A DNA stretch of 39,727 nucleotides from an uncultured Chitinophagaceae bacterium (GCA_964499155.1 CAZCKF010000001.1:1057-40783), one strand, 5' to 3'. Shown: positions 1 to 39,727, numbered from the stretch's first letter. The notes: generated by a model from the sequence alone, not told the origin. Numbers and translations: made by a program.

Positions 1-263
1 TGATGTACTATTCGGTCAGGGAAATATGGCAGCCGGAATATTTCTCGCTCTTTTGGATCATAGATCTTGAATACGGAGTATTCTGAGGTACGGTAAGATT
101 TAGTTTGTAGCAGCTGCTGAAGAGAGATAAGATTTTGCTCACGGTTTCTATCATGAAGTTGAACTCCATACTGCGAAGCCTTCCCTTTCCTTGCGCGGCT
201 GTCAGCCAGCTGAAGGTTTTCCAGGGAGCACACATCCGTATATATATTACCAATTCTTCGCAT
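1..263 (-). CDS. Reverse transcriptase, DGR-type; only the N-terminal 87 codons are in the window
   Basis: The minus-strand frame is open from the in-frame TGA at 278-276 down to position 1, with ATG at 263-261. My translation is MRRIGNIYTDVCSLENLQLADSRARKGKASQYGVQLHDRNREQNLISLQQLLQTKSYRTSEYSVFKIYDPKEREIFRLPYFPDRIVH. It contains the PK.R.I and DRIV motifs seen in the N-terminal finger region of DGR/group-II-like RTs (compare Bordetella Brt YEPKPRLISALEFKDRLVQHA). It is absent from the ORF track because it has no in-window stop. Confidence 0.85.
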   Translation of the reverse strand, partial: MRRIGNIYTDVCSLENLQLADSRARKGKASQYGVQLHDRNREQNLISLQQLLQTKSYRTSEYSVFKIYDPKEREIFRLPYFPDRIVH

Positions 264-367
264 TGCCTTTGCTTTTCAAAATCGCTTTCCCGAAAAACGG
301 TACCAGTGATCTCGATTATTGAGTCATTTTTTGCCATGTTGGCAAGGCATGCGCTGCAACAAAAATA

Positions 368-443
368 TTAGCATAGGTGAGAGCTGACATTCGTATTCGT
401 ATTCCAGTTATCGTAGTTCGTATTCGAGAACCTGAAGCTGCCA
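368..443 (-). repeat. DGR template repeat (TR), non-coding, about 76 nt
   Basis: Aligns without gaps to 561-636 and 958-1032. All mismatches are at TR positions that are T on the plus strand (A on the minus strand). Read in the VR frame it gives GSFRFSNTNYDNWNTNTNVSSHLC*, with six AAY codons. It lies 104 nt upstream of the RT ATG. Confidence 0.9.
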
Positions 444-485
444 CTGACTAACGAAAAGAACACCGCTCTTGCAGCGCACTACCTA

Positions 486-875
486 TTAAGAGATCAGGAA
501 ATATTCCTTATACAGGTCAGCAAACTGCTTTCCAGCATAGGTTGCTAATTCCCTGGTTCGAAAGCAAAGGCGAGAGCCGACAGTCGTATCCGTATGCCAG
601 TGATCGTAGTACGTATACGAGAACCCGAAGCCGCCAGGACGCTTATCATCAGCCTTTATTTCAAACCATGGGAAATATTTATATTCATCGGAGTCATTCC
701 AGTTGGGTTGCCATCCATCATTCAGAGCCTCAGCGATAATGATCAACTTAAAATGTGCAATTAGGGCTTTTTGATGTTTGGAAGGCACCACTGAAACTTC
801 AGGAAGCGCCATTGGTTTTAACCCCAATTTTTCACATGCTTCCTCATAAGTTTTTACTGTTTTAGTTTTTGCCAT
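486..875 (-). CDS. DGR variable (target) protein 1, 129 aa, paralog of 862..1356
   Basis: ORF-track ORF. Contains VR1 (GGFGFSYTYYDHWHTDTTVGSRLCF), followed by a conserved tail ELATYAGKQFADLYKEYF. No signal peptide or TM segment is visible. Confidence 0.85.
   Translation of the reverse strand: MAKTKTVKTYEEACEKLGLKPMALPEVSVVPSKHQKALIAHFKLIIIAEALNDGWQPNWNDSDEYKYFPWFEIKADDKRPGGFGFSYTYYDHWHTDTTVGSRLCFRTRELATYAGKQFADLYKEYFLIS
561..636 (-). repeat. DGR variable repeat VR1
   Basis: Over TR 370-443 there are 11 mismatches, all opposite TR adenines. Two further A-type mismatches lie at 368-369. Confidence 0.9.
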
Positions 876-1356
876 TTTGAGAATTTTCTATTGTTAGGAA
901 TTGTTTGTATAGATCCTCGAACTGAGTGCCGGCATATTGAGCCAGCTCTTGAGATTTGAAGCAAAGGCGAGAGCCGACAGCCGTATGCGCAATCCAGCCA
1001 ACGCAGTACGTATGCGAGAACCCGAAGCCGCCCATCTTAAAATAAGGGATCCACTTACGCTGGTTTCCATTATCCCAATCAGGAACCCAACCTTCATTGA
1101 GTGCTCGAGCAACAATGATCAGTTTACAGTATGCTATAATAGAGGAATAGTCTTTATCAGGAACTCCAGCAGGAAGTACATCACTTTCCTGAAGCCCCAA
1201 AACTTCACACGCATCTTCAAATGTTTTTACTCGGTCAGTTATTTTTTGAGAGAAAAAGGTTTCACCAAAAGTGTCAATGAGCATTTCCTTGAACTCCTGC
1301 GATGCGGATGGGTAAAGCTTTTTAGCTTTCTTCTGATCAATCTGAAGTGTTTGCAT
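862..1356 (-). CDS. DGR variable (target) protein 2, 164 aa, paralog of 486..875
   Basis: ORF-track ORF. Contains VR2 (GGFGFSHTYCVGWIAHTAVGSRLCF). It shares the blocks TFEDACEVLGL / ALNEGW.P.W and ELAQYAGTQFEDLYKQF with target 1. Its 3' end overlaps the start of target 1 by 14 nt. Confidence 0.85.
   Translation of the reverse strand: MQTLQIDQKKAKKLYPSASQEFKEMLIDTFGETFFSQKITDRVKTFEDACEVLGLQESDVLPAGVPDKDYSSIIAYCKLIIVARALNEGWVPDWDNGNQRKWIPYFKMGGFGFSHTYCVGWIAHTAVGSRLCFKSQELAQYAGTQFEDLYKQFLTIENSQNGKN
958..1032 (-). repeat. DGR variable repeat VR2
   Basis: Over TR 370-442 there are 16 mismatches, all opposite TR adenines. All 51 non-adenine positions are identical. Confidence 0.9.
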
Positions 1357-2383: not shown

Positions 2384-4078
2384 TTATATTTCTAACAATT
2401 CAGGATTTAAACGAATCTTTCCAGATTCGCGTTTTATTAATTCCAGAGTATTTAAAGATGAAAGAGCATTGTTGAACCCACCAGAATTAAATGAGTATTG
2501 GCTTGGTGTTTTTGCCGCTAAGTCCTCCTTTGAAAATTCATGATTTGGATTATCAAGAAGCAGCTGATAAATTTCCCGCTCACACTTGCTGAGCTTCTCT
2601 ATATAAGTATGAATAGAATATTCCTGCGGCTCAAAATCCCCCAGGCAATGATGTAAATCTGCAGAAGTATTGGCCCTGACCTTACCTCCGTTTCTAATTA
2701 TTAGACCACTTGAATTGAGCTCACTTAATGCATTATTAAAACCACCACTATTAGGTGAGTATCCAGTTGCAACTCCGACTTGCGTTTTAGTGAATTCTCT
2801 TTCACTATAAGTTGCCAGAAACTGTAGTATTGCTTTTGGGCATTTTAATAATTTTCCGTTGGAGGATGCCTCCGTTACTTTATGATAAACCCTATCAGTA
2901 AACTTTTGATTATGATCAGTGAAGGATTTGTGTACTGGAACTGACATCACAACATCCTTCTTTGTTTCTTTTATTTGAAGCTTAGTCCAGTCAGCTTTTT
3001 TGTTTCTTGCCAGATCGCTAATCTGTTGAAGGATAGTTGCGTATTCAGTAAGCCGCTTACCTAATAGTGCCTCTTGCTGAAGATTCCGGCTAACTTCCTT
3101 TTCTAAATCCGCAATCCGCTTTTTAAATTTGCTGTCATCAAACTTTACAGCAGCTGGCTGTGAATTTTTTAACTTCGTAAGCTCACTCCTTAACCGTGCG
3201 ACCTCTGCCTGAAGCTGTTGTTTAGATACTAATTCCTTCTCAGCCTCTTCAGGTATATCAACTAGTTTGCTAAGTATTTTTTTAACAGCCGCTGGCGTAG
3301 GTGGAGCAGCTGTGATTCTTTTGCCAGCTCTTAAATGCGTTGTTACTACAGGCCCGACCTTAAATTTGGTGATCTCATTATTAATCGCGGGGCCAAATGA
3401 AAAAAATTCTCCCTCTTTTAATTCCCGAAGGGAAAGCATGTCCGTCTTATTTATCATTCCCAATTCATCTCCAGCCCTTTTGCGATCGATATCCAGGCCT
3501 GTCCTGCCAATCATCTTATTTAAACATTCGGCAGCTGCATCCTTATGAAGTTTACTTAGTCTTTGTGTTGCCAGGATACCAGCAAACCCCCGCTTCCTAC
3601 CTCTTGTGCATAGATCTATCACCGAACTCATGGATTCAGACTTGCTGCTTTCGGGGCAAAATATGTGGGCTTCATCCACATACACAAAGCAGGAATGCCA
3701 CAGTTCTTTTGGGGCATTAATTAAAGCATCCAGAAATTTTTTCACAAATTGAATGCGCTCGTAGTGCTTCAATTCATATAAATCAATAATAGCGGAAAGG
3801 TTTGTCTCAAGAAGTTTGTTGGCAAGCATTTCAGCGTATCGCAGTGATAACGGTATATCACCCCCTTTCGCCACGAGAAGGAAATCAAACTTTTCTCTTA
3901 GTGTTACGAACTCACCTTCGGGATCAATTATTATTTGCTGAACCTGGTTGCCGACTGACTCAGCTACTTTTCTAATCGCCCAGGATTTTCCACCCCCGCT
4001 CCCTGCTTGGATAAGAAGTCTTGTGTCCAATAGTTTTTGAACATCAATCTCTATTCCTATGTTGATCTTGTTTGACAC
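2384..4078 (-). CDS. HerA/FtsK-like P-loop ATPase with a coiled-coil linker and two C-terminal winged-helix-like repeats
   Basis: Walker A is GSGGGKS, Walker B is VYVDEAH, and ILATQRLSKL resembles the HerA/DUF87-type TQRPS block. A heptad-rich middle region follows. There is an 88-aa internal duplication, with YSPNSGGFNNALSELNSSGLIIRNGGKVRAN (nt 2669-2764) and YSFNSGGFNNALSSLNTLELIKRESGKIRLN (nt 2405-2500). Confidence 0.7.
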   Translation of the reverse strand: MSNKINIGIEIDVQKLLDTRLLIQAGSGGGKSWAIRKVAESVGNQVQQIIIDPEGEFVTLREKFDFLLVAKGGDIPLSLRYAEMLANKLLETNLSAIIDLYELKHYERIQFVKKFLDALINAPKELWHSCFVYVDEAHIFCPESSKSESMSSVIDLCTRGRKRGFAGILATQRLSKLHKDAAAECLNKMIGRTGLDIDRKRAGDELGMINKTDMLSLRELKEGEFFSFGPAINNEITKFKVGPVVTTHLRAGKRITAAPPTPAAVKKILSKLVDIPEEAEKELVSKQQLQAEVARLRSELTKLKNSQPAAVKFDDSKFKKRIADLEKEVSRNLQQEALLGKRLTEYATILQQISDLARNKKADWTKLQIKETKKDVVMSVPVHKSFTDHNQKFTDRVYHKVTEASSNGKLLKCPKAILQFLATYSEREFTKTQVGVATGYSPNSGGFNNALSELNSSGLIIRNGGKVRANTSADLHHCLGDFEPQEYSIHTYIEKLSKCEREIYQLLLDNPNHEFSKEDLAAKTPSQYSFNSGGFNNALSSLNTLELIKRESGKIRLNPELLEI

Positions 4079-4659: not shown

Positions 4660-5325
4660 TTATGCTGCTTCAGTTATTTGTGAGAATAGATACCAGTACT
4701 TAAAAGCCAGTTCCTGGTATTTTAATTTCCCACTGTTATAGAATTCCCCGCCTCTTTTTATCGGAAGTTTAAAAACCTTACAATTCACTTTCGATATACC
4801 GATCAACATGTCATTCTCCACCCCCTCTATATCCATATAGAGAGCCCGCTGCCGGTCGTAATCGAAATGCCGGCATGCATCCTCAAACTGTTTTTGGCTG
4901 ACGGCTGTTGTGCTTTTGATATCTCCACTGAGCCTGAGCTTTGGCATGGCGTAGAGATCCCATTTGCAACGTACATCCAGGGTAAACTGGAAGCCGTCAT
5001 GCTCAATAAGGAAATCCTTTTTAATACTTACTTTTTGAAATTCACTATGCTTGGCGAGTGTTGCACAGAACTCATCCTTGTAAAAAGCTGCTTTCATTTT
5101 CTTTGCCAGGTCAAATTCCTCGCGAGAATATCTCTCACCGGCACAGGTCATATTGAAGTAGTTAATCTTCTCCGGTTCAGTGATCATGCAATCGATCAAT
5201 GTTCCAAACCGGTAGGCCTGTTCAACATCATGGATCTGATCTTCCTGCATCCAATATTTCTTTAACCAGGATAGATCACTGTTGCTCACTTCGGGCATGA
5301 AATAATATGGATCTTTCTCTGCCAC
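4660..5325 (-). CDS. PD-(D/E)XK family exonuclease (RecE/exonuclease VIII-like, DUF3799-like)
   Basis: Motifs LDVRCKWD ... SGDIKST ... FDYDRQRALY fit the D..(D/E)xK plus Q.A.Y pattern of RecB/Cas4-like phage exonucleases. It sits in a recombination module with RecT. Confidence 0.65.
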   Translation of the reverse strand: MAEKDPYYFMPEVSNSDLSWLKKYWMQEDQIHDVEQAYRFGTLIDCMITEPEKINYFNMTCAGERYSREEFDLAKKMKAAFYKDEFCATLAKHSEFQKVSIKKDFLIEHDGFQFTLDVRCKWDLYAMPKLRLSGDIKSTTAVSQKQFEDACRHFDYDRQRALYMDIEGVENDMLIGISKVNCKVFKLPIKRGGEFYNSGKLKYQELAFKYWYLFSQITEAA

Positions 5326-6802: not shown

Positions 6803-7735
6803 TTAAAAATCCTCGTCCTCCTGGTACACAGCTGGTCCACCAGCGGGTTGAGATTCAGCAAATGAATCTTCATCACCCGCTTCTTCTACACTCGATGGAC
6901 CACCTCCATTAAAACCGTATTCAATCGTTTCCGGAACTTTCATTGTTTCATTGCCATTAACTGCAACAACCTCCACTTCTTCGTCAACCTGTTGGCTGGC
7001 CAGGTTAGAGAAATCACCGGTCCTGACCTTCGGATAATTTTTAAAGGCATGCTTGATACATTTAACCATCCACATTCCACCGAGGCCATCCACCCACGCT
7101 TTGGATTCCTTGTCCTTAGAAAACTTCCTGAACCTCGCCATATCATCTTCGGTGATCACCTTGTAGTCGATACTGTTATCGATACGAACGATCCGGACAT
7201 AGCACGCGACGATTGTAGCATTCTCCTTCCTTGGGATTTTAGTGACATGCTTCACAAAGAATTTTTCTCCTTCATTACCGAATGAAAATTCATCACCATC
7301 ATAAACCAGGACAGGGTTATCAGCATATTTTATTTGCCCCTGCTTTTGCCTGAGGAGTAATTCACCGTATCCGGATATTTGAAGCGTCGCTCGTTTTTCC
7401 CATTTAGGATTTTGTTTTGTTCCAATGTTGGTAGCGAATGGTACCAGGTACAGGTGTTTGAAAGACGGATCGAATGAAAGGCCATTCACTGCAACATCCA
7501 TGAAACAGCCATATAGAGATAGCTTGCTGCAGGCCTTGAGATTTTCATTCTCCTGGATCAGTTTAGTGAAGTGAAATTTCTCCGCTTCATAAAATGCTTC
7601 TGATTTACTTCCAGGATGAATAACACTATATAATCTTTTGAATCGCTCGGCGATCGCAGGGATAGCCGGCAGCTGCATAGGGCTTGATTTTTCAATCACC
7701 TGCAGCAGATTTGATTTTGTATTTGTTTGTTCCAT
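6803..7735 (-). CDS. recT: RecT-family single-strand annealing recombinase
   Basis: The sequence shows features typical of RecT: LYGCFMDVAVNGLSFDP, HLYLVPF, LQISGYGELLL, MWMVKCIKHAFKNYPK and an acidic C-tail. Confidence 0.8.
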   Translation of the reverse strand: MEQTNTKSNLLQVIEKSSPMQLPAIPAIAERFKRLYSVIHPGSKSEAFYEAEKFHFTKLIQENENLKACSKLSLYGCFMDVAVNGLSFDPSFKHLYLVPFATNIGTKQNPKWEKRATLQISGYGELLLRQKQGQIKYADNPVLVYDGDEFSFGNEGEKFFVKHVTKIPRKENATIVACYVRIVRIDNSIDYKVITEDDMARFRKFSKDKESKAWVDGLGGMWMVKCIKHAFKNYPKVRTGDFSNLASQQVDEEVEVVAVNGNETMKVPETIEYGFNGGGPSSVEEAGDEDSFAESQPAGGPAVYQEDEDF

Positions 7736-10408: not shown

Positions 10409-10921
10409 ATGGCTGCTGGACATGAAATAAGGCGGTTACGAGGAAAGATTGCAGCAGCAAGGGTAGCTCAGCTGATAGGCATTGATGTAGGACGTTTACG
10501 AAAATGGGAAGAAAGAGATACTGATCCAAAAGACACTGGAGACATACAGAAAATTGAGACTTATTTCGGAAGACCATTAAAGGAACTGCCTGAAATTAAA
10601 TCTTTCGAATTTGTCCAAAAACCAACCCGCTCTGATGCAGGTATAAAAGATGACCTCATCGAGGCTCTCAAAGAAAGTAACCGACTCCTGAAAGAAGCAC
10701 TGGAAGTTAATTCAGATGAACTACATCGAAATATTCTGTTAACTCGATCCTTGGCTGAAACGAACCAGGATATTCTAATTGAACTACTGGCGAAACAAAG
10801 AAAACAGGATCAGAAGACTGTTGTCTTAGAAATGAACAAAGCGAATGCCGACAAACTTCATCGAATGCAAGCAGAGGACAACCTTTCCGGTAGGGGCAAA
10901 CGGCGCATTTTTTCATCATAG
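10409..10921 (+). CDS. XRE/cI-like HTH repressor with a coiled-coil C-terminal half, 170 aa
   Basis: The N-terminus IRRLRGKIAAARVAQLIGIDVGRLRKWEERDTDP is a typical HTH_3 pattern. No S24 peptidase motif is seen. Confidence 0.7.
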   Translation: MAAGHEIRRLRGKIAAARVAQLIGIDVGRLRKWEERDTDPKDTGDIQKIETYFGRPLKELPEIKSFEFVQKPTRSDAGIKDDLIEALKESNRLLKEALEVNSDELHRNILLTRSLAETNQDILIELLAKQRKQDQKTVVLEMNKANADKLHRMQAEDNLSGRGKRRIFSS

Positions 10922-12554: not shown

Positions 12555-13691
12555 TCAGCGATACAATTTAGCTACTTCCTTATCCAGGCTTTCATCATCA
12601 AGAGCCTGCAGATATCTTTCTGTGATCAGTGTGCTGGAATGACCAAGACTGTCTTTAATCGCTGAAATATTTCCTGATTTCTGTTTCATGTGAAATGCAA
12701 AACTGTGCCGGCTGATGTGCATGGTGACGTGCTTTTGAATTTTAGCAATGCCAGCTGCAATCTTCAAATTGCGGTTTACCATTGTATTTATGATATCAAG
12801 GGCTTTCCTTCTTTTTTCTTCACCAAGTGGAAGATCTTCTTTCAGATATGGAAATAAGAAAGGTCCTGAATACCGGTCTATGATCGCCTGAAGTTTGGGA
12901 TGAATCTGGACAGAAAGAAATGCCTTACCCTTATTTATTTTGAAATATATCCTTCCATTTTTTATATCAGATCTTTTTGCAGTGATGCAGTTTTCAAACC
13001 TGACACCCTTTGAATAGTAAGCAAACATGAAGAGATCCCTTGCCATCCGGGTTTGATCATCTGGCAGCTCCACTGATTCCAATGCTTTTATTTCCGCCTC
13101 TGTCAGTTTTTCTTTTTTGGTAGGGACCTTACCAATCGTAAATTGTTTAAAAGGGTTAGGGTGCCTGGCACGTCCTTCCTGGATAGCTTTTTCAAATAAC
13201 TGTCTCAGTTTTGCAAACTTGTTTTCCCTGGTATTCTGATGATTCTCTTTCAAGTAAATGTTGAGCTTGCGTAAATGATCCTGTGTAATATCTTCAAAGG
13301 TTATTTCACCAAGCGATTCCTTTACTTCCGTTGCAAGCCTTTCTGTTTTCCGGTACATGGTATATTTCCCTTCATCCTTGTATTGGCTTGCCCGGTGGAT
13401 AAGATATCCTGTAAATGAATTGCCGGTTTCCTTTTTGAAAACATCATCCAGGTTATAGATGGTATGGGAGGAAATATATCTTCGAACAGTAGAAAGAAGA
13501 TCATCAATCTTTGAGTTGATGATTGCTGCATCTGGATGTTTCCTGACTGCATTATCTGCCCATTGCGACTCTTTTATTTTAAAGCCAGTAGGTATCAACT
13601 TTTGTTTTCTTCCTAAGATTAACCGTATAACAAGAGGATAGGTATCATCTTTTGACTTATATCGTTTGTTCAGAAAAACTCGTGAAGTCAT
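12555..13691 (-). CDS. int: Tyrosine recombinase / phage integrase (Bacteroidota-style, N-terminal arm-binding plus SAM-like plus catalytic domains)
   Basis: Catalytic residues lie in ...VRFENCITAKRSDI... and HISRHSFAFH...LGHSSTLITERYL (R, H-x-x-R, H, Y). The N-terminus LNKRYKSKDDTYPLVIRL is typical of this integrase class. Confidence 0.85.
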   Translation of the reverse strand: MTSRVFLNKRYKSKDDTYPLVIRLILGRKQKLIPTGFKIKESQWADNAVRKHPDAAIINSKIDDLLSTVRRYISSHTIYNLDDVFKKETGNSFTGYLIHRASQYKDEGKYTMYRKTERLATEVKESLGEITFEDITQDHLRKLNIYLKENHQNTRENKFAKLRQLFEKAIQEGRARHPNPFKQFTIGKVPTKKEKLTEAEIKALESVELPDDQTRMARDLFMFAYYSKGVRFENCITAKRSDIKNGRIYFKINKGKAFLSVQIHPKLQAIIDRYSGPFLFPYLKEDLPLGEEKRRKALDIINTMVNRNLKIAAGIAKIQKHVTMHISRHSFAFHMKQKSGNISAIKDSLGHSSTLITERYLQALDDESLDKEVAKLYR

Positions 13692-15119: not shown

Positions 15120-15773
15120 ATGGCTATTTTAAAAGACATGACAGGCAAAACGTTTTTTGATCTCACTGTTTTGAATAAATCCACTGAAATAGGAAATGCT
15201 AAAAAGCCTATAGTTCACTGGACGTGCAAATGTATATGTGGTAATATTGTTGACGTTCCCGGTAATTCTCTTCGTACAGGTAGTACAAAGTCTTGCGGTT
15301 GCGGAATGAAGGCAACCCAGTTTTCGAATAAACATCAAATGTGTTTTACTCATGAATACAATTGTTGGCAAGGGATGAAGAAGAGATGCAAGAACAGCGA
15401 TGGAAAGCATCTCACGTATGTTCTTAAAAACATTACTGTCAGCCATGAATGGGAAAGCAGCTTTGAGAATTTTTATAATGATATGGGTCCTGCGCCAAGC
15501 CATGAGCATACTATTGATAGAATGGATAATTCAAAGGGTTACTATAAGGGAAATTGTCGTTGGGCAACTCAAAAGCAACAAAACCGTAATTATGATCAGA
15601 ATCGAATATTGACATATAATGGTCGTTCAATGTGCGTAACAGAATGGGCCGAATTCTTAAATATTGATCGCGGCTTAATTTTCAACAGGCTTCGGTATGG
15701 ATGGTCAGTTGAAAAAGCGTTGACTACACCAAAAACTTCTTTGCCCGCTCGTAATATTCCAATCTCGATATAA
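15120..15773 (+). CDS. HNH-type (homing) endonuclease, 217 aa from the ATG at 15120
   Basis: A Cys-rich N-terminus (CKCICGN...CGCG) and HTIDRMDNSKGYYKGNCRWATQKQQNRN match the stand-alone phage HNH pattern. This is one of the few plus-strand genes in a minus-strand region. Confidence 0.7.
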   Translation: MAILKDMTGKTFFDLTVLNKSTEIGNAKKPIVHWTCKCICGNIVDVPGNSLRTGSTKSCGCGMKATQFSNKHQMCFTHEYNCWQGMKKRCKNSDGKHLTYVLKNITVSHEWESSFENFYNDMGPAPSHEHTIDRMDNSKGYYKGNCRWATQKQQNRNYDQNRILTYNGRSMCVTEWAEFLNIDRGLIFNRLRYGWSVEKALTTPKTSLPARNIPISI

Positions 15774-16371
15774 ATCCGTTCATTCCCCCATTGATCAACC
15801 TGGTTATTCTTTCAAACTTATCATCGATCGCCAGCTGGATGAGATTCTTTTCAACTGCAAATACCCAGCATGCGCTGTCCATTGCCCATTGATCATTTGT
15901 CCTTAAAAGAACTGCAGCTTCTTCGGCTGTCATATGTTTATGCTTCCCGTACCTGGTGAAAATATCCCGGCCCGTCAGCTGAATGAAACCGGCACCACGA
16001 AATTTCCACCCGTCACCAAGATTTGTGTTACCCATCCTGCCGCCATATACACGATTGGCAATTCTTTGCGGTTGTCTATGAAACTGCTTTGCTTCATCAT
16101 CCGTGCGGAAGTATTTTGGAAATATTACACGGAGTCTCGGCCAGGAGTAATTTAGATTCTCTTCTTTCAAACGAAATCCTCCAGACTCGTGAGCAATCTG
16201 CGCAATGAATTCGTGCAGGATATCAGGATCATCCATTTTATAATAGGGACACATCTTATTCACCAGATCAGCAACTGCAGCAGCCCTACCCGGTGAGAGA
16301 GTAGGAACTACTGCCTGCATCACCTCACCAGTGACGGTCTTTTGTTTTAAAGTTGTAAATCCCCAAGGCAT
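15724..16371 (-). CDS. Endolysin, glycoside hydrolase family 19 (chitinase-like lysozyme)
   Basis: FIAQIAHESGGFRLKEENLNYS ... ANRVYGGRMGNTNLGDGWKFRGAGFIQLTGR is the GH19 endolysin signature. The start is set at Met23 (16371), just after the upstream stop. Confidence 0.8.
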   Translation of the reverse strand: MPWGFTTLKQKTVTGEVMQAVVPTLSPGRAAAVADLVNKMCPYYKMDDPDILHEFIAQIAHESGGFRLKEENLNYSWPRLRVIFPKYFRTDDEAKQFHRQPQRIANRVYGGRMGNTNLGDGWKFRGAGFIQLTGRDIFTRYGKHKHMTAEEAAVLLRTNDQWAMDSACWVFAVEKNLIQLAIDDKFERITRLINGGMNGFISRLEYYERAKKFLV

Positions 16372-16387
16372 TGATGACAATTGTTTA

Positions 16388-16819
16388 CTATACCCGCGCT
16401 TCCAATTCCTCACCCTCGTATACAGGATGTGATTCAAAAAATTCTTTCACCTTTTTCCAGAGATCAGGCTGATTTTGTACGTAATGGGAGTCCTTTCCAT
16501 AGTAATCCTTATGTTTTTTTAGGGAGTGAAGTTCATAAAGTAACTGTGCGGATTCTTTCAATGTTTCCAATTCACAATCTTTTGAGGGCTCGTAAGTCTG
16601 GTTAAAAACACGAGCCTTGACGATCAAAAATTTTCCTTCACCTGATTTTATAATAAAATCTTTTTCGCAAATAGTGCTTGTTCCCTCAGGTGTAGGGACA
16701 CCAACAATTACTCCAGCAGTTGGAATACCATTGCCGTTGATGAATTTCATTGCTTCTTCCAAGTTTGCACTGGTATACTGAATGGCTTCAATCGTTTCTG
16801 ATTTTCTTGTGTATTTCAT
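16388..16819 (-). CDS. Hypothetical phage protein, 143 aa
   Basis: ORF only. The N-terminal TIEAIQYT...FIIKSGEGKFLIVKARVFNQTYE resembles a small beta-rich domain common in phages, which I cannot name with confidence. Confidence 0.55.
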   Translation of the reverse strand: MKYTRKSETIEAIQYTSANLEEAMKFINGNGIPTAGVIVGVPTPEGTSTICEKDFIIKSGEGKFLIVKARVFNQTYEPSKDCELETLKESAQLLYELHSLKKHKDYYGKDSHYVQNQPDLWKKVKEFFESHPVYEGEELEARV

Positions 16820-18691: not shown

Positions 18692-19159
18692 TCAAGGGTT
18701 GGGATGTGAAACATATTTCTCAATCTCTTTTTCCTTGGCCATTAATTTTGATAAGTATTCGATATCGCGTTTTATATTCTCAAGACCTTCTTTTACATGG
18801 TGAGCCAGTTTGTCAAGGAAATCACGTTTTGATTTCTGAACATACCTCCAAGCTCCGCTGTTCATAAATTCAATGATCACATCGTTTGAATCAATACCAG
18901 ACAGAATAATTACATGGCACATTCTGTTTCGTTCCAATACTTTTTTTGTGATCTCAATGCCGTTTAAAGCGCAGTCGGGCATGCGGTAATCTATAATAGC
19001 CAGGTTCACATTGTCTGTTAGCTGTGAAAGGAAATCCGAGCATTCATAAAAAAGACGATAATTAATAATCTTCTCTTCTTTGAATTTGTGATCGATCAAT
19101 TCAAGGATGTCCTTGTCATCATCAAGTATAAATACCATGATATTTATAAATCTTTCCAT
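18692..19159 (-). CDS. Stand-alone response-regulator receiver (REC/CheY-like) domain protein with a short helical tail
   Basis: VFILDDDKDILELI (acidic pocket), LAIIDYRMP (phospho-acceptor Asp), VIILSG (Thr/Ser position) and YVQKS (Lys) are in the canonical order and spacing. No output domain is present and no kinase gene is in the window. Confidence 0.7.
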   Translation of the reverse strand: MERFINIMVFILDDDKDILELIDHKFKEEKIINYRLFYECSDFLSQLTDNVNLAIIDYRMPDCALNGIEITKKVLERNRMCHVIILSGIDSNDVIIEFMNSGAWRYVQKSKRDFLDKLAHHVKEGLENIKRDIEYLSKLMAKEKEIEKYVSHPNP

Positions 19160-19446: not shown

Positions 19447-22400
19447 TTAATTCCTAAATCGACCTCGCATTTTATCTCCTATAATCTGGTTGGGGTTAAC
19501 AATAATGATCACCGTATCAGTAGCCGTTGCGCCTCGATCATCAGTAACCGTAACCTGGAAAGTATAAGATGATGCTGGCTGCAGTCCTGCTATCACGGTC
19601 CCTCCCTGGGTTGGGAATCTTATTATCGATCCGTTTCCGGAAAGTTTTGTATGCAGTATAGAGACAATATTTCCGTCATCGTCATTTGCCTTTATCGATA
19701 CTATAATTGAATCGCCTTCAATAAACTGTGTTGCTGCTCCTTCAAACTCCACTGTTGGAGAAGAATTGACAAGAACTGTAACTGTGTCTTTAGCGATTGC
19801 TCCGCGGTTATCAGTAACCATCAATTCGAATTGGTAAGTACCAGGGATAAGGCCTGTTAATCCTGTTGCAGAAAGTGCAGGAGTTGTAATCGTTACAGCT
19901 CCACCGGTTAGTTTACTCCACAAATAAGTTAAAATGGTACCATCTTCATCATTAGCTGATCCAGTCAGTACTGTTGAAGTTGATGGAGTATTTATTTGTA
20001 AATCCGGGCCAGCCGAAACAATCGGTGTTGCATTAGCGGTCACAACAATAACGACTACATCATCATCGATTGCGTCATCATCATCTTTAACTCTAAGATT
20101 TAATTGATAGGTCCCGGGTGTTAATCCTGAAAATGTTGTGCTTGCTGAATTTGCATTTCCAAATGTTCCACCGGTGCCAGATATTTTAGTCCATTGATAA
20201 GTAACTATCGTGCCGTCAGAATCTGTCCCACCTCCGGATAATGTTACTGAGCTATTTGGTGGATAATAAATGGATTGGTCACTACCAGCATTTGAAATGG
20301 GTTGAATGTTTACAGGGGGTGCAGCATTAACAATAACGGTGATAGTATCAACCGCAGTTGCACCGCTGTTGTCTGTTACAGTTAATTTAATCTGGTATTC
20401 CCCGGCCGTAAATCCCGTCACTGTCGTTGTTGCACTTGCGGTTGCAGTAATCGTGTGTGGTCCAGCTGTTATTTTACTCCAGGCATATGTTGAGATCGTC
20501 CCATCTATATCAGTTCCGGAACCGTTTAATGTCATCTCACTAACCGGTAAATCAAACTCCTGATCACTACCGGCATTCGCTGTTGGAGGAATATTAGGTG
20601 CAGGGTTAACGGTTATAGTAACAGTATCGTCATCTGTTGCCCCTTGGTTATCCGTTACAACTAATTTCAATTGATAAGCCCCTGCTGTAAATCCAGAAAC
20701 TGTTGTAATTTGACTGGAAGGATTTATAATCGTGTGTGCCCCTGCAGTAATTTTTGACCAGACGTAAGAAACAATCGAGCCGTCTGGATCTAGACTACCA
20801 TCACCCTTTACACTTACTGTGTTTCTTGGGAGAGTAATAGTTGAATCTGTCCCAGCATTGGAAATGGGGTTTGTATTAGTAGGAGGACCTGATGTAGTGA
20901 ACCCAAATCCGAGAGCCTTATAAGTATCATCATCGCGGAGCCTATAATCATCAGGAGGGTGCAATCTTCTTACACCTCCTTCATTCCAGGTTAATAATTC
21001 CCAGTTGGCGTCTGTGTAACCTTTAGGAACGTTTCCGGTATTATTAAAAATCTTGGAGCGGTAAAATTTTCCAAAATAAAAAGCAACCTCATTAAGTGAA
21101 TAACTCCATGGTTGCAGCCATTTAGGAGCAATCCCAGGCGTAGGCGACTCATCCTTATAAGTAGCATAAATTAAATCTGCCCACCATGAATTATTATTAA
21201 AATTGTAGTTATCACCCCATCCGGAATTAACATACTTCGGATATGCTACCGGTATCCCGTTTTGGTTTCCGGAGCTATCAAGATTCGCGGCAGTTACAAG
21301 AATTGATTTTGATCCGTCGCTTTTGTTGTTCTTAAATATTGCCCTGAAAGTATTGTCAGTTTTGAAAACTATGTTATCATTCTTTCCTTCTGTTGCATTG
21401 GAATTATAAACCCGGTCATTAGTCCACTGCATGTTCTTGAAGAAGTTGCCGGTAATACTGATTTTTTCATTAGGTAACCTGCTTGAATGTGACCCGCCAC
21501 GTGAACCATGTATATCTCCAAGGAAATTATAATCAACATGGTTTGTATCGCCGTTAGGTGCAACTATAATATCCCTGGCTGATCCGTTAGCAAAGAATTG
21601 TGTTGCACCTTGAACTATGTTATATTGAAATCTGTTTCCACCGTTCCTATATGCCATTTGAAATCCCCGATCGTTGAATGGTCCGAAAGGAGTCATGAAT
21701 TTGAACCCTGCATTAATTACAACATTGTTGTGAATGCTGTTACCTAAGCCCTGATTATTAAACTGTATTCCTTCACTCCCAGTCCTTACGATAAGATTGT
21801 CATGAATGTCCCATCCATTGCCCTGATGTTGCCAATTTATAACAGCCGAATCCTGGCCATTGACACCTTTTACATATATCGTATCACCGGACGTGGATAA
21901 CGCATAAATTCCTTCACTACTCAAATCATGCAGGAAATTGTGATGGACTTTGAAGAAGTCATAATCGTTTGTACTTGTGAGAGCCAGATCTTCTGCCTTG
22001 ATAAAGAATCCTGAGAAATATCCGTTAGCAGCTTCAAAGTTGTCCATCTCGACAGAATCTGTAAATGCTCCGGCCAATAAAACGCCATGCTGATTTAAAT
22101 TCTGCCACCTGTTATTGGCATAAAAACCAAACTTCCCATGACGGTTGGCATAGCCCCCGGCAAAACCCTGGTAGTTAACGTGACCTCTCACACCTGGTAC
22201 ATATGCTCCTGACCAATGAACGTTTCTAAGGTTGGAAACTTTCCATTCTCCCATCCATTCAACCTGGCCACCGTAGGTGTACATAAAATTCCTATTACCA
22301 GCTGCTGAGCTTCCAAAGAATGTACTGTCCTGAAAATGTGTTGTGATAGCACCATACCGCCCGGCTCTTACCCATATGCCTCTATTCGGTGCAAGAGCAA

Positions 22401-23955
22401 TTTGATCGGTATTGTGCAGATAGATATTATATTTCGATCCATTGATAACAACATCATTTGCACCATCGATGATTATGTCACCAAGAGCCATAAATGCCCA
22501 TGTACCAATATCCGCCGGTGTTACAAGTCTCCAGCCATTACCGTTTGTCGCTTGCGGTGGAGGGGTGCCGCGGTTCACGAAAATCATCATACTATCAGTA
22601 CTCGTGCATCCGCTATCGTTAGTAACAGTGAGGTATATTTTCTGTCCCGCCACTGAAGAAAACGAAGGCATCAAAACTTCTGGAGTTGCTGTATTGCTGT
22701 GTTTAATATTATATGTCTGCGCTAATGGATCTCCTTTGGGTGGAATAGCTTTATACCAATTGTAATTAACGTTAATGCCTGTAGATGCTAAACCATTTAA
22801 ATAAACAGTATGGGTTGTATCATCAAGTTCAATTGTTTTATCAGGCCCTGCGTTAGCTACACAAGTCCCTGGATCAACAGGAACAGCAGGGTTGACAGTT
22901 ATTTGAACAGTATCTAAATCAGACAGACTTGAATTATCTGTAACTAATAAGCTAAATTGATAGGTACCGGCCACCAAACCGGTTGCAGAAGTTGATACAC
23001 TATTAGCCGTTGTAAGATTGTAAGTATTAGGCCCCGATACCCTTCTCCATAAATAGGAAGTGATTGACCCCCCTGGATCTGAAGAACCCGAGCCATTCAG
23101 TGTAACTGAATTTGTAGGTAAGGTGATTGTTTGGTTTGATCCAGCATTGGATATAGGTGCTCCTGTTGTCGGCGGAGCAGGCGTATTGGCCGGCGTGATC
23201 AGCCACTCATAAACACTTTTACCACCTTCCCTGTAATTCGGATTATAATAATTATTCCAACAGCAATGCCCCCCACTGAACATTGTCATTTTATTATTCG
23301 GATAGCCTGCATTTGTAAGATTATTTATAAAAGCCTGCAAAGACTGGCCGCGTCCTGCGTCGTTATTTCCCGAAATCGCCCATACAGGGATTGACGCATA
23401 ATTTGAAATAGATCCGTGAAAAGCAAACGACATGGGAACAATTGAAGCCACCTTTGCTTTGGCACCCGGAATAGTATTTATGTATTCAAATATGGAGTAA
23501 GCACCACATGACAACCCTGTAAGAGAAATTTTATTATTCCCCATTGAATACCGCTGCCTCACCGCCTCAACCAATCCATCATAAACAGTTGCGTTCATAC
23601 ATGAAGCCTTCGGTTGGACAGCTATGATCCGAATGTTTGCAGGTCTTAGAGAGCCATTGCTCATATAGATTGCAGGACCATGGACAAACAATCTTGTATG
23701 CTGCCCCATTTTTTCAGCTACGGTATATGGAGGAATACCGTCTGGTCCATGTATGCCTACTCCGTAATCCCTTGCTTCATCTCTTCCTGTTGTGAACATG
23801 ATCGTTTTAGTAGAACTATTTGCACCCGTCGGCACCCACTCAACAATATTGATCACGTCACCAGATACAATCATTGTATCAATGCGGTAACCGGGAACCT
23901 GCCCGTATACAAGTACTCCTAATAAAATAAATCCTATCGTTATTAATCTTTTCAT
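19447..23955 (-). CDS. Giant multidomain tailspike-like/depolymerase protein with signal peptide, alpha/beta-hydrolase esterase, PKD-like, right-handed beta-helix, CBM-like and 5x PKD-like domains
   Basis: Start at MKRLITIGFILLGVLVYGQ (ATG 23955, one base after the upstream TAA). The esterase triad is in order: GLSCG, NNDAG, GGHCC. Beta-helix-type repeats include NNVVINAG and HDNLIV. A CBM5/12-like block is YSLNEVAFYFGKFYRS...ANWELL. Five tandem ~90-aa Ig/PKD-like repeats span nt ~19489-20871. Confidence 0.7.
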   Translation of the reverse strand: MKRLITIGFILLGVLVYGQVPGYRIDTMIVSGDVINIVEWVPTGANSSTKTIMFTTGRDEARDYGVGIHGPDGIPPYTVAEKMGQHTRLFVHGPAIYMSNGSLRPANIRIIAVQPKASCMNATVYDGLVEAVRQRYSMGNNKISLTGLSCGAYSIFEYINTIPGAKAKVASIVPMSFAFHGSISNYASIPVWAISGNNDAGRGQSLQAFINNLTNAGYPNNKMTMFSGGHCCWNNYYNPNYREGGKSVYEWLITPANTPAPPTTGAPISNAGSNQTITLPTNSVTLNGSGSSDPGGSITSYLWRRVSGPNTYNLTTANSVSTSATGLVAGTYQFSLLVTDNSSLSDLDTVQITVNPAVPVDPGTCVANAGPDKTIELDDTTHTVYLNGLASTGINVNYNWYKAIPPKGDPLAQTYNIKHSNTATPEVLMPSFSSVAGQKIYLTVTNDSGCTSTDSMMIFVNRGTPPPQATNGNGWRLVTPADIGTWAFMALGDIIIDGANDVVINGSKYNIYLHNTDQIALAPNRGIWVRAGRYGAITTHFQDSTFFGSSAAGNRNFMYTYGGQVEWMGEWKVSNLRNVHWSGAYVPGVRGHVNYQGFAGGYANRHGKFGFYANNRWQNLNQHGVLLAGAFTDSVEMDNFEAANGYFSGFFIKAEDLALTSTNDYDFFKVHHNFLHDLSSEGIYALSTSGDTIYVKGVNGQDSAVINWQHQGNGWDIHDNLIVRTGSEGIQFNNQGLGNSIHNNVVINAGFKFMTPFGPFNDRGFQMAYRNGGNRFQYNIVQGATQFFANGSARDIIVAPNGDTNHVDYNFLGDIHGSRGGSHSSRLPNEKISITGNFFKNMQWTNDRVYNSNATEGKNDNIVFKTDNTFRAIFKNNKSDGSKSILVTAANLDSSGNQNGIPVAYPKYVNSGWGDNYNFNNNSWWADLIYATYKDESPTPGIAPKWLQPWSYSLNEVAFYFGKFYRSKIFNNTGNVPKGYTDANWELLTWNEGGVRRLHPPDDYRLRDDDTYKALGFGFTTSGPPTNTNPISNAGTDSTITLPRNTVSVKGDGSLDPDGSIVSYVWSKITAGAHTIINPSSQITTVSGFTAGAYQLKLVVTDNQGATDDDTVTITVNPAPNIPPTANAGSDQEFDLPVSEMTLNGSGTDIDGTISTYAWSKITAGPHTITATASATTTVTGFTAGEYQIKLTVTDNSGATAVDTITVIVNAAPPVNIQPISNAGSDQSIYYPPNSSVTLSGGGTDSDGTIVTYQWTKISGTGGTFGNANSASTTFSGLTPGTYQLNLRVKDDDDAIDDDVVVIVVTANATPIVSAGPDLQINTPSTSTVLTGSANDEDGTILTYLWSKLTGGAVTITTPALSATGLTGLIPGTYQFELMVTDNRGAIAKDTVTVLVNSSPTVEFEGAATQFIEGDSIIVSIKANDDDGNIVSILHTKLSGNGSIIRFPTQGGTVIAGLQPASSYTFQVTVTDDRGATATDTVIIIVNPNQIIGDKMRGRFRN

Positions 23956-23956
23956 A

Positions 23957-26900
23957 TTAATATACTCCAACCCAGTGCCTTACTGTGTTACCTGCTATTG
24001 TTGATGCAGTTATAGTTGCAGGAAGTGAGTTTGTTGCGGACTTTTGTCCGATTAAAAAATTACTATTGGTAAAATCCATTGATGTTTCATTTGTAAGACC
24101 TGCTGTTACAATTCCTATTTGAGGAGGAGTAGATGCTGACGAATAATTCAGAAGTAATCCAACATAATATCTACCTCTTGGAAGTGTAATTGGAGATGTG
24201 AATGGCTCTTTCGTCATAGCGTTTACAGTGCCCTTGTATAAATTGGGGTTATCTGCACTGCTTGCCAGAAGCGTCATTGTTCCACCAATACTTTTTGTGA
24301 AAATTCCGACCTGGTTTGTCTGATCAGCTGTATAAACACCGGAAAGTGTGAGCCAGAACATAACACCAGTGATCGTTCTTGTCTCCGGGATATCAATTGC
24401 CGCATACCTGGCAACGTTATCAACGACTGCTGAAGCACTACCTGCAGTAATGTTATAAAACGTCCAGCCTATATTCTCACCTTTAATTTCTGAACCCAAA
24501 TCCTGATAAGCTGCTATTGTACTACGCTCCCTGTCACCTATCGCCTTCCAGTTTGTGCCATCAGATTTGAACTCGTAAACCCGGTCATTATCCAATGCTG
24601 TTATAGCCACATCTTCAGCATCAACAACAGATCCTGAAACAAGCCAAGTGAATGCAGCAGAATTATTATTTGTTACTTTAATTATTTGCCCTGCTACTTG
24701 AGATGGGAATGTTAGTGTGCGATTAGCTGTTATTGTTGGCAGGATCTGGTGAGTAACCGCCATTGAAGTATTGGCATCGGAAGCTGTGGCTGTATAAAGG
24801 GTGAGTACAGGCGTCGAAAGATTTATTCTATTTGCCCATAGGCTAAAAATGTCAATCTTATCTGCATTCTCTCCAAGGTCCACATCAAAAAGACCACCGC
24901 CTATTATTCTGTTCGAGGTAAAATCTCCGTCAGCCGTAAGCCAGCTTGAACCGCCGCCAGAAGCGTTGATTGTTGTGCCGGTGATTGATAAATTGGTGCC
25001 TAGTGTAAGCCATTTAAATGCATTATCACTTTCATCCCAAAATGCAATCCGGTCAGCTCCTGGATCAGACAGAGCTTCCAGTCCTAAATGAGAAAGTGCT
25101 ATCGTTGGATTTGCAGAAACACCATTCCCGTTTGTTACACCTATTCCGGTCCCTTGGGTAATTGTTCTACCAGTGAAATTATCTGCGCTCGTTTGGACAA
25201 CAATCCCATTTGTATTGAAAGAAGCCAGAGCGGCCAGTGTTGCATCTGATCCTTGTGCACCGATATCAGAAAGTGTTTCTGCACCTGTACGATATCTTAC
25301 TTCTCCGTCGCCATCAATAACAAGGAATTTATCAAGGTCAGTTGTTTCGTGGTGAACTTGGCTAAGAGAAAGAGAGTCATATACGCGGATATTACCAATC
25401 CCAGGATCAATTGGTTCAGCTCCTGTTCCAAGAACGATTCCTCCTGCTCTAAAAAACTTACCATAGGTAATTCCACCTGGTGAAACTTCAACAGCCGTAA
25501 CACCTACCACCAAATCAGAAAAATCACTATTCGCATTTAATGAAATTGAAGTAGGGTCGCGCAATACGAGTGCACCTTGATGATAGAGTGACGCATTTGC
25601 TGCAGTTGCGTTTACCACTCCACCAAACCAGATCCCATAAAAACTATTTACATTACTAAGGCCTATATCCATTCCTCCTGATGAACCTATGTGCCATCGC
25701 TTATTTGCTTCGTCCCAGGAGAAGTATGGATAAGATTGTGTCAGCTCAGCATCGGCTCCAATAAATGGAATTGATCCGGGAGTGAACCCTGTAAGTACGG
25801 GTGCTTGATCAAAGGTGTTTATTCCGGTAAAAATGTTGTTGATAGCAAGATGCGGAACCTCCTCTTTGTTAGCCTTGAAATTGTATAGAAAATCGAAAGT
25901 GCCAGATGATATTATACCGTCCTGACCAGATTCATCAGCATACCTAATCCTTAAAGAATCGTTGGAAACATAAAGCGGATTAACAGCGATTGTAGTTGCA
26001 TTGCCTGAAAGCTTATAAGCCCAAGTTCCTGGGTTTCCTGCAGCTGTGCAGTACCATATTAATACTGAATCAGGACCCCCCTGATTAATCACAATATCTC
26101 CAACACCGTGTTTACCGACTGTTGGAGGCCCGGACCCACCCCTGATATTTCTTTTACTCCCATTAGCTGGGTTAGTAAGGAAAAAACCATCCTGGTGAAA
26201 AATAGTAAGTCCGGCTCGCACAGCTGAATCGCGACCGAAATCAGTACCAGCTATTGCATTACCAGTAATACTGAAAGCAGTATAATCAATTGAGTTATTC
26301 CAAAATAAGCGTGCATACTTATCGGATTCAAAATATTTTATAGATCCGTAGCTGTGGGCAGATTTTTTTGATCCAAATACATGACCGGATACCCAGTCAA
26401 CTCCGGAAAATTCATTTGTTGAATCTCGATTATAAACCTCAACTCCTTTGCCACGAAACACTCTTCTGCCTTCTACCACCTCATCATATGAACTTCTATG
26501 AAATGCATTGTTACCAACAACCTCGACTGCAGCTGCATTGGTGCCTCCGTTCCACATTCCACGAAGTCCTAAGTCGTGGCCTCCCTGCTCACCTTCAGTG
26601 TAACCCCAAATCTTTGTTCTTGCTACCTGACCAGATACTTTAATGACCCGGGAACCATAATATTTTACATCCGATCTCCAAACTTTAGATATCAATGATG
26701 CATCGCCGGCGCAGCACACTGTCATGTCCTGCCAGTAGTCACCATAATCAGATGCAGTTGGATTTTTATTGATGTTATCCTCGACGGCTAAGTAATACCT
26801 CCATATCCCACCAACGAATATTTTAACCCATGAATCCTGCAGTGTAGAATCACGCAATCCATTGGATGCGATATGCACGTTGCTGTAAGTATTGCCGTGG

Positions 26901-38919: not shown

Positions 38920-39727
38920 TTAGAACGCTATTGTACGAGACAACAGGTATATTCCGTCAATTGAATCCAAGCCAGGCATTGCGTTGAGTTCAACCTTTGT
39001 GAATTCCTGCCATGGATCATTATCTCCCCATTTTGAAATAAGTGCTTTATTGAATTTTGCATAACTGATCTGCTGAAGAGGTTTCAGGTCTTCAATAGCA
39101 AATGCATTATGAATGGTGCCAAGTTTTCCAGCTGGTACAAAAACAATATTTGTATCCTCGAATGGACTGATCGTTGAAATCACACCATCTTTTTCAATAC
39201 CGATAGTGTGGTCAACTATTTCAATTGGTGGAAGATTTTGTTTCCTCAGGTAATCATTGGCAGTTTCCATTGTAGGAATCAGTCTATTATTTCCGGTACG
39301 GCCAAGGAAAGCACTGTATTGATCAAGAACCTGTGTGGTTGCAATGAATGCATACCATGAATTCCAGGTCATAAGAATTCTGCCAAAAGAAATTCCGCGT
39401 GCGCGGGCTGCATTTACGATCCCCTGGATATCTGTTATCGGTTTTGCCGTGGTAGGAGATCCTGTCCAGTTGACTGCAGCATTCACTTTATTGCCTGCCG
39501 GCATTAACAGGTCCAGTGGATTTGCAAGAACAATACCATCTGGGTTATTGGTAACGGTGAGACTGATCTTGCCCGTGCTCACTGCTTCCAAAGACATGAT
39601 GTCAATTCTTTTCATTGCTGCATCACCAACCTTTTTCACATCATCGAAAATCAGGTCAAGAATCTGCTGCTTTTTCACCTGGTCGCCGATAGGCATATTT
39701 TGTAACACCAGGTATTCCCTCATTAGT
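38920..39727 (-). CDS. Major capsid protein, lambda gpE family (5' end beyond the window)
   Basis: DIMSLEAVSTGKISLT aligns with lambda gpE EEMQAVSAVLKGKYTMT, and the C-terminus DPWQEFTKVELNAMPGL aligns with DPAREFTMIQSAPLML. The frame is still open at 39727, and about 80-100 N-terminal residues appear to be missing. Confidence 0.8.
   Translation of the reverse strand, partial: LMREYLVLQNMPIGDQVKKQQILDLIFDDVKKVGDAAMKRIDIMSLEAVSTGKISLTVTNNPDGIVLANPLDLLMPAGNKVNAAVNWTGSPTTAKPITDIQGIVNAARARGISFGRILMTWNSWYAFIATTQVLDQYSAFLGRTGNNRLIPTMETANDYLRKQNLPPIEIVDHTIGIEKDGVISTISPFEDTNIVFVPAGKLGTIHNAFAIEDLKPLQQISYAKFNKALISKWGDNDPWQEFTKVELNAMPGLDSIDGIYLLSRTIAF

Follow-up and report, generated by a model that had tools for sequence, protein, structure and literature searches.

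Introduction

In the DGR of Bordetella phage BPP-1 (mtd-avd-TR-brt), sequence is transferred from a template repeat (TR) to a variable repeat (VR) with changes specific to adenines, and the 3′ end of the VR carries an IMH-type asymmetry. Avd is found in about 74% of DGRs and is not universal. According to the survey by Wu et al. (2018), an accessory gene is missing from 29% of DGRs, lineage 3 is without avd, and DGRs with multiple targets are known. Among the reference targets of that survey, reprinted in Supplementary Data 8 of Roux et al. (2021), t120 (NZ_AMSG01000002.1) has tandem targets of 156 and 123 aa followed by the reverse transcriptase (RT), while t121 (AKZJ01000008.1) has a target of 131 aa, and both are labelled CLec3 (Wu et al. 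2018). Discussion of these small targets is absent from the main text of Wu et al. (2018).

A comparable arrangement was catalogued by Roux et al. (2021), in whose data the genes IMG 2576065990 and 2576065991 are the secondary and primary targets, respectively, of RT 2576065992. Their cluster, PC_00007, is one of 24 main target clusters, is assigned to class "Phage_other", DGR clade 1 and RT cluster t122, and is not classed as structural; RT cluster t122 mixes PC_00007 targets with tail-type PC_00002 targets (Roux et al. 2021). Neither the main text of that paper nor its supplementary notes were found to discuss PC_00007 specifically. A target-TR-RT order without avd and with a CLec3 VR is also seen in the DGRs of the crAss-like phages LMMB and cr55_1, and those who described LMMB assigned its RT to lineage 3. 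Finally, Quimbyvirus has a second DGR target that is non-structural and distal (Benler et al. 2021), and non-structural distal targets have also been described for four cultured gut prophage species. Here we describe a DGR cassette at the distal end of a phage early operon and compare it with these systems.

Results

Phage context of the cassette

The whole stretch of DNA analyzed here, 39.7 kb and hereafter called the window, is that of a temperate siphovirus-like Bacteroidota phage. A search of a phage collection for distant nucleotide similarity gave no match to the window, and an exact search of viral contigs with the TR gave none either. The genes that define its context are the following.

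6803-7735, minus strand: RecT, early operon
4660-5325, minus strand: exonuclease-like gene, early operon
2384-4078, minus strand: HerA-like ATPase, early operon
10409-10921, plus strand: HTH regulator, a lysogeny gene
12555-13691: tyrosine integrase, carrying a Bacteroidota-type arm-binding domain
15724-16437: endolysin
28174-29517: tail-fibre protein
32158-36138: tape measure
38920-39723: head protein

The distal end of the early operon consists of two target genes, T2 and T1, the TR and the RT, in that order, with the features listed here.

862-1356, minus strand: T2, the long paralog, 164 aa (open reading frame; phrog_11581, E = 3.5e-36)
960-1032, minus strand: VR2, in T2, encoding GGFGFSHTYCVGWIAHTAVGSRLC
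486-875, minus strand: T1, the short paralog, 129 aa (open reading frame; phrog_11581, E = 5.4e-34)
563-635, minus strand: VR1, in T1, encoding GGFGFSYTYYDHWHTDTTVGSRLC
370-442, minus strand: TR, non-coding, beginning 43 nt past the T1 stop codon and containing 22 adenines
268-349, minus strand: structured spacer RNA between TR and RT (sub-threshold match to Rfam RF03020, RT-17; covariation)
3-263, minus strand: DGR RT, N-terminal 87 codons (tblastn); the gene leaves the window at its left edge

An initial annotation had placed the targets at the end of the recombination/replication operon, some 27 kb from the fibre gene, and the coordinates bear this out. It had also described them as small tandem paralogs, and indeed both open reading frames were recovered, the last 14 nt of T2 are shared with the start of T1, and the two proteins are paralogs with 50% identity (E = 2.5e-41). 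T2 comprises an N-terminal helical extension of ~40 aa, a core domain with VR2 and two C-terminal helices, while T1 is the core domain only. Neither protein has a signal peptide or membrane segment, again as annotated; the highest 19-aa Kyte-Doolittle windows score 1.26 (T2) and 1.08 (T1). No family for T1 or T2 was found in Pfam, NCBIfam and PADLOC searches. The CH1 accessory gene that Wu et al. describe (160-169 aa, pI 4.7) was considered as an identity for T2; this was unsupported, as T2 has a pI of 5.7 and bears a VR.

One template repeat and two variable repeats

A repeat search over the window revealed three copies of a 73-74-nt element, at 369-442, 562-635 and 959-1032, and the TR, VR1 and VR2 were taken as 73 nt. 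Both VRs sit in the 3′ part of their target genes, with VR2 encoding residues 108-131 of the 164 in T2 and VR1 encoding residues 81-104 of the 129 in T1. On the minus strand, positions at which the TR has a base other than A are identical in all three copies (51 of 51), and every mismatch falls at a TR adenine (11 of 11 for TR/VR1 and 16 of 16 for TR/VR2; hypergeometric P = 2e-7 and 1.4e-11). The claim that one TR serves both targets holds. On the two sides of the repeats, the T1 and T2 sequences are only 54% and 48% identical at the nucleotide level. Because the flanks have diverged to this extent while the repeats are uniform, the repeats are maintained by template transfer and do not reflect recent duplication. 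When A was replaced with N in the TR pattern, the search matched just three sites in the 39.7-kb window, the TR, VR1 and VR2, and so detected no third VR in the tail genes of the window.

Read in the target frame, the TR encodes G-S-F-R-F-S-N-T-N-Y-D-N-W-N-T-N-T-N-V-S-S-H-L-C, with six AAY codons. The rewritten core spans 12 codons, for which the template reads N-T-N-Y-D-N-W-N-T-N-T-N and contains 17 adenines. The computed capacity of this core is about 1.2e10 peptides per target, and a stop codon never arises. As the initial annotation had noted, the VR-encoded segment ends in VGSRLCF and is followed by a conserved C-terminal segment.

The 3′ ends of the repeats show a distinct asymmetry, to which the following elements contribute.

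960-978, minus strand: IMH-like end of VR2, last 19 nt
563-581, minus strand: IMH-like end of VR1, last 19 nt
370-388, minus strand: IMH*-like counterpart, 3′ end of the TR

Within these last 19 nt the TR has A/A/A where both VRs of the window have G/G/T, the sites being the first base of the G codon of GSRL, the R codon and the L codon. The same fixed TR/VR differences are found in 70-90% of 131 family pairs (80-90% at the G and R codons). By analogy with the IMH/IMH* asymmetry of BPP-1, the IMH-like 3′ end probably sets the direction of homing. A significant GC-rich hairpin of the BPP-1 type was not found 3′ of the VRs (z = -1.1 and -0.2). A terminator-like hairpin at 460-477 was also considered and was rejected as no better than chance.

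The reverse transcriptase and the spacer RNA

The part of the RT visible in the window (codons 1-87) is 57-60% identical by tblastn to the complete RVT_1 RTs of two related loci, L002 and L004, and matches phrog_1423 (E = 8.1e-22). Against the Wu reference RTs, this N terminus is 63% identical to t122 and 54% identical to t121, both of which have targets labelled CLec3. The complete RTs of L002 and L004 contain IGNYLSQ and YADD, in agreement with the DGR signatures [LIV]GxxxSQ and YxDD; in the window, which shows codons 1-87 alone, these motifs would lie past the edge. The RT of L002 has its closest deposited phage relatives in crAss-like phages (47-58% identity), and the closest classified RT is that of crAssphage LMMB (46.7% identity).

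The absence of an Avd between targets and RT, claimed at the outset, was upheld: none of the ~30 open reading frames of the window has a Pfam match to the Avd family, and no Avd was found between targets and RT in the relatives. An open reading frame at 8-337 (109 aa) was rejected as a gene, being a spurious frame that overlaps the true RT. It was likewise rejected as an Avd, with no family match in Pfam and phrog searches, and as a stop-codon-recoded RT, because tblastn puts the true RT in another frame. In the relatives, a conserved open reading frame of ~100 aa directly follows the RT; it matched no family in Pfam, NCBIfam and PADLOC searches and is not conserved in cr55_1 or Versailles.

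The region between TR and RT matches the Rfam model RF03020 over its full length, with a score in the window (23.3 bits, E = 0.12) that lies under the 40.4-bit gathering threshold; the homologous spacers exceed it in L016 (48.5 bits) and in L022 (46.5 bits). In an alignment of 24 non-redundant loci, the window included, nine pairs in two hairpins show compensatory changes. In addition, 95% of spacer cells are paired, compared with 83% after shuffling and 29-46% after sliding of the partners, and none of 500 shuffles matched the observed pairing/covariation. RT-10 occupies the same position in BPP-1, and other RT motifs have been proposed to serve DGRs (Weinberg et al. 2017). RT-17 appears to be such a DGR-serving RT motif, and the spacer RNA is likely a scaffold and priming element for cDNA synthesis.

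Recurrence of the cassette in Bacteroidota

Relatives of T1 and T2 are numerous, with >2,300 clusters when grouped at 90% identity and, for grouping at 50% with E up to 1e-3, 3,422 representatives, and they occur in genomes of Chitinophagaceae, Sphingobacteriales, Bacteroidales and other Bacteroidota, as well as at >460 places in IMG/VR. We surveyed 103 related loci, 94 of which had enough downstream DNA for the RT to be counted. An RT lies ≤1.2 kb downstream of the targets in 82 of these 94. Most of the 82 cassettes contain two targets (68), with three in 8 and one in 6, and in two-target cassettes a long and a short paralog are orthologous to T2 and T1, respectively. In L002, for example, the long target is 61% identical to T2 and the short target is 68% identical to T1.

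Of 2350 mismatches between TR and VR across the family, 2184 are at adenines of the TR. In the family alignment, hypervariability is confined exactly to the VR, with GFGFS and VGSRLCF conserved on either side. Members of this family are nearly always diversified by a DGR and encoded among early genes. Such cassettes do decay, as in L001, where the RT is frameshifted and a target is split.

Comparison with catalogued DGRs

The initial annotation had viewed the locus as an atypical class of target in an atypical context. This part of it did not hold, as the same cassette is present in Wu et al. (2018) as t120 and t121, and in Roux et al. (2021) as PC_00007, and lineage 3, its most likely lineage, is without avd. 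T1 shares 41% identity with the target of t121 (E = 2e-34), and T2 shares 30% with the long t120 target. The t120 locus has the tandem target-target-RT order of the window, its small targets end in ..GSRL.., and no avd is expected there; t120 and t121 differ from the window by sequence divergence alone. T2 is 48% identical over 161 aa to the PC_00007 member IMG 2576065990 (E = 4e-51), and T1 is 46% identical to IMG 2576065991 (E = 2e-36). In PC_00007, as in the window, a long/short tandem pair stands beside the RT, with no difference in kind; the cluster is of viral origin with FCB-group hosts, and its VR lies at 0.7-0.8 of the protein length. The cassette most likely belongs to Wu lineage 3, a placement based on similarity to classified RTs, and to the CLec3 VR class and Roux DGR clade 1. 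A catalogued type of Bacteroidota phage DGR normally shows just these traits: small tandem targets, one TR, no Avd and a non-structural location. The locus is therefore ordinary for its lineage and not a new DGR class.

Other described systems differ from the window in several respects. The crAss-like DGRs share its target-TR-RT order, lack of avd and CLec3 VR, but they diversify a tail-collar fibre or tail protein. In cr55_1 the tail VR is the single one, and a search of that phage for a distal VR or small distal target found neither. The window shares with BPP-1 the adenine-specific transfer from TR to VR and the IMH-type asymmetry at the VR 3′ end. Unlike BPP-1, however, it has no Avd and no GC-rich hairpin after the VRs; its targets are not tail fibres, a lectin fold was undetected in them, and two targets are served by one TR.

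Small early proteins and tail proteins with a common template

Distant homologs of T1 and T2 occur in cultured or complete Bacteroides phages, amid recombination, replication and methyltransferase genes. The small early-region proteins of LoVEphage and Versailles are T2 homologs (27-34% identity). In LoVEphage, the VR of the small protein differs from the phage TR at adenines only (11 of 11 mismatches). In Versailles, the TR adjoins a tail protein and the RT, and mismatches to this TR fall at A in 15 of 16 cases for the small early protein and in 12 of 13 for the matching tail C terminus. In both phages, one TR is common to a tail protein and a distant small-protein homolog. The Versailles homolog was itself labelled 'tail protein' by its depositors, from an HHpred match.

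The small proteins of LoVEphage and Versailles lie near methyltransferase, recombination or tRNA-ligase genes, which fits the published distal targets (Benler et al. 2021; Nature 2025). In these phages the RT and TR stand beside the tail protein, the primary target, and the small protein is single and 14-44 kb away. In the window, by contrast, the RT and TR adjoin duplicated small proteins, and there is no tail target. From the LoVEphage case, we infer that the published Quimbyvirus-type distal ORF belongs to the same family as T1 and T2. PC_00007, the small CLec3 targets of Wu et al. and the LoVEphage-type "second distal VR" appear to be one protein family.

The relation to CLec3 tail proteins was examined by profile comparison. 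The family profile aligns to CLec3 by hhalign with E = 1.5e-5 (reference t116) and 7.6e-6 (four-sequence alignment), in both cases over 26 VR columns only. The variable segment is the same module as in tail proteins, and a virion- or receptor-related role is therefore conceivable.

Predicted fold of the targets

The structures of both proteins were predicted with AlphaFold2 (T2: 45 sequences, pLDDT 83.1, pTM 0.73; T1: 143 sequences, pLDDT 84.8, pTM 0.79). Both models consist mostly of helix and coil, with N-terminal helices, a tryptophan-rich irregular stretch, the VR and two C-terminal helices. The VR is the low-confidence part of both, with pLDDT 40-64.

A Foldseek search with both models against 350,542 PDB chains returned no lectin entry (best E 4.7-4.8, TM ≤0.25), while a search of BFVD returned uncharacterized proteins alone, from sipho-, podo-, myo- and crAss-like phages. 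A Pfam scan of 143 family members detected no recurrent or lectin-type family at E up to 1, and PDB sequence-profile searches gave nothing below E 0.06, hence no match to solved variable proteins of the lectin fold such as Mtd, TvpA, TaqVP and AvpA; profile searches thus placed the target domain in no Pfam, NCBIfam or PDB-profile family. CLec3 tail proteins, too, have no sequence relative among solved structures. The resemblance to lectin-type variable regions, which the initial annotation had drawn from the VR ending, therefore stands for the 26-column variable segment and not for the whole fold. On these results, membership of T1 and T2 in the lectin fold is not supported, but a divergent lectin is still conceivable, given the poor modelling of the VR and the well-known divergence among lectin variants.

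Discussion

We consider it highly probable that the locus is an Avd-less DGR of the Bacteroidota type, in which two tandem PC_00007/phrog_11581 paralogs are the sole targets in the window. It is a bona fide DGR cassette and probably active. A very improbable alternative is that the cassette is an inactive relic, whose repeats are a trace of earlier homing and whose proteins now work with sequences that no longer change. The RT is visible to codon 87 alone, L001 provides a decayed cassette, and an RT within reach is lacking in 12 of 94 related loci, all of which would suit a relic. Yet the 73 nt of the TR, VR1 and VR2 show zero non-adenine differences, against flanks that have diverged to ~50%, and the cassette retains an intact spacer RNA and intact IMH-like ends. 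What the targets do is less clear-cut. We regard it as an even call that T1 and T2 are non-structural diversified binders in phage-host or phage-phage conflict, possibly working as a long/short pair. This reading is drawn from their being soluble, lacking a signal peptide and being encoded with recombination/replication genes; they adjoin RecT/exonuclease genes in the window, as do their homologs in L002, Versailles and LoVEphage. The idea of intracellular binders, raised in the initial annotation, fits the gene context and the speculation in papers on distal targets. A serious rival, though an unlikely one, is that the small proteins are virion components, such as a small adhesin or fibre-tip accessory used in host recognition, encoded at a distance from the tail genes and diversified for tropism switching like BPP-1 Mtd. 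Homology of the variable segment to that of CLec3 tail proteins would agree with this role, as would the Versailles and LoVEphage TRs, which diversify a tail protein and a small protein alike, and the 'tail protein' label of the Versailles homolog. The homology to tail proteins is, however, confined to 26 residues, and in four independent phage groups the gene is found amid early genes for recombination and replication. Moreover, the class that Roux et al. gave to the cluster is not a structural one, relatives by predicted structure in BFVD span differing tail morphotypes, and no tail gene of the window contains a VR.

The nature of the scaffold bears on how far the locus departs from the classical model. 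To the reading that the scaffold has a C-type-lectin fold in minimal and divergent form, so that target size and genomic position are the only departures, we give somewhat less than even weight. It accords with the CLec3 class of the VR in the Wu labelling and with the longer LoVEphage and Versailles homologs, which have a fuller CLec3-like stretch, e.g., GALLSA..GASAGFG...GFRLC. It also accords with the argument of Roux et al. (2021) that VR domains without an assignment probably represent novel variants of lectins and with the assignment of C-type lectin domains to both Quimbyvirus targets (Benler et al. 2021). Against it, models with pLDDT 83-85 and pTM 0.73-0.79 have no PDB match in Foldseek (best E >4, TM ≤0.25), none of 143 members has a lectin-type Pfam match, and profile searches against PDB sequences are empty; the models are mostly helix and coil, with two helices after the VR. 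The converse, that a non-lectin, mostly helical scaffold captured a tail-fibre-type CLec3 segment and yielded an intracellular, Avd-less long/short pair of hypervariable binders against host defence or competing-phage proteins, we find doubtful. Under such a capture, the RT-17 spacer RNA would be used, and perhaps the ~100-aa protein encoded after the RT as well; if true, phages of this type would encode a DGR-driven repertoire against host defence or the proteins of competing phages. More generally, if proteins of the T1/T2 type act inside the cell, DGR biology would extend past receptor binding.

For the favored Avd-less cassette, a route of diversification can be proposed by analogy with BPP-1. 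The TR would be transcribed together with the conserved RT-17-like spacer, the RT would copy the TR to cDNA with misincorporation opposite adenines, and the cDNA would then replace VR1 or VR2, with Avd presumably not required in this lineage. The resulting variable stretch would be displayed between the helical N-terminal scaffold and the two C-terminal helices. As regards the spacer, the orphan Rfam motif RT-17 was found at the place where a DGR spacer RNA is expected.

A structured RNA between the TR and the reverse transcriptase

In the window, as in two related loci (L016 and L022), the TR and the RT are separated by a spacer that forms a conserved structured RNA, with a relationship to RT-17 (RF03020), an orphan motif in Rfam.

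Window 268-349, minus strand: structured TR-to-RT spacer RNA, kin to RT-17 (RF03020)
L016:1281-1361: counterpart spacer RNA, related to RT-17 (RF03020)
L022:6605-6684: counterpart spacer RNA, related to RT-17 (RF03020)

In the Bordetella phage BPP-1, the site equivalent to this RT-17-related spacer is occupied by another motif, RT-10. RT-17 would thus gain a role, as a spacer or priming RNA in Bacteroidota phage DGRs. A 109-aa ORF on the minus strand at window 8-337, which overlaps both the spacer and the true RT frame, was rejected as spurious: homologs are lacking, and the protein collection contains no exact copy of its sequence. Between the stop codon of T1, the short target, and the TR lies a weak terminator-like hairpin with a T-run (460-477, minus strand; -3.6 kcal/mol, z -0.7). 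Terminator-like sites in this region are no more frequent than in shuffled sequence.

Shared TRs, apparently joined targets and a decayed cassette

In two complete Bacteroides phage genomes, a single TR serves two proteins: one is a tail protein, the other a small member of the target family encoded at a distance, in the early region.

Versailles (ON453897.1), L105:5370-5481 with L106:4832-4946: TR/VR sites of the shared-TR arrangement
LoVEphage (OY725593.1, L109), near 5084-5201: TR; the VRs belong to the tail protein and to gene 21015-21599

Some family representatives, 275-305 aa in length (P0122, P0123, P0126, P0130, P0166 and P0176), contain two matched stretches and appear to be long and short paralogs joined in a single protein. 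This apparent fusion hints that the pair works together. A cassette copy in decay was also observed in a related locus (L001:4019-5334), where the short target is broken into fragments of 114 and 96 aa and the RT, frameshifted and truncated, is 188 aa.

An ORF following the RT

In 66 of 85 related cassettes, the stop codon of the RT is the starting point of an ORF of ~100 aa or is overlapped by it; its counterpart in the window would fall outside the left edge.

L002:8058-8357: post-RT ORF, phrog_19665
L004:8714-9019: post-RT ORF, phrog_19665
64 other loci: post-RT ORF, phrog_19665

The product is basic (pI about 8.7) and apparently beta-rich, and has no Pfam match. The ORF is missing from the crAss-like phage cr55_1 and from Versailles. 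Its product could be an accessory factor specific to the lineage, or the ORF could simply be a syntenic phage gene.

Other genes of the window

Downstream of the tail-fibre gene, two very large ORFs of 1507 and 1400 aa (19447-28159, minus strand) have no PHROG match, and neither contains a VR. The early operon encodes a 564-aa HerA/FtsK-like ATPase (2384-4078, minus strand; DUF87, Zot), which carries two C-terminal repeats of winged-helix-domain-like appearance and gives a weak hit to a PHROG annotated as "terminase large subunit". Between the lysis region and the large tail genes sits a gene for a stand-alone response-regulator receiver domain protein (18692-19159, minus strand; Pfam Response_reg, E 4.6e-15).
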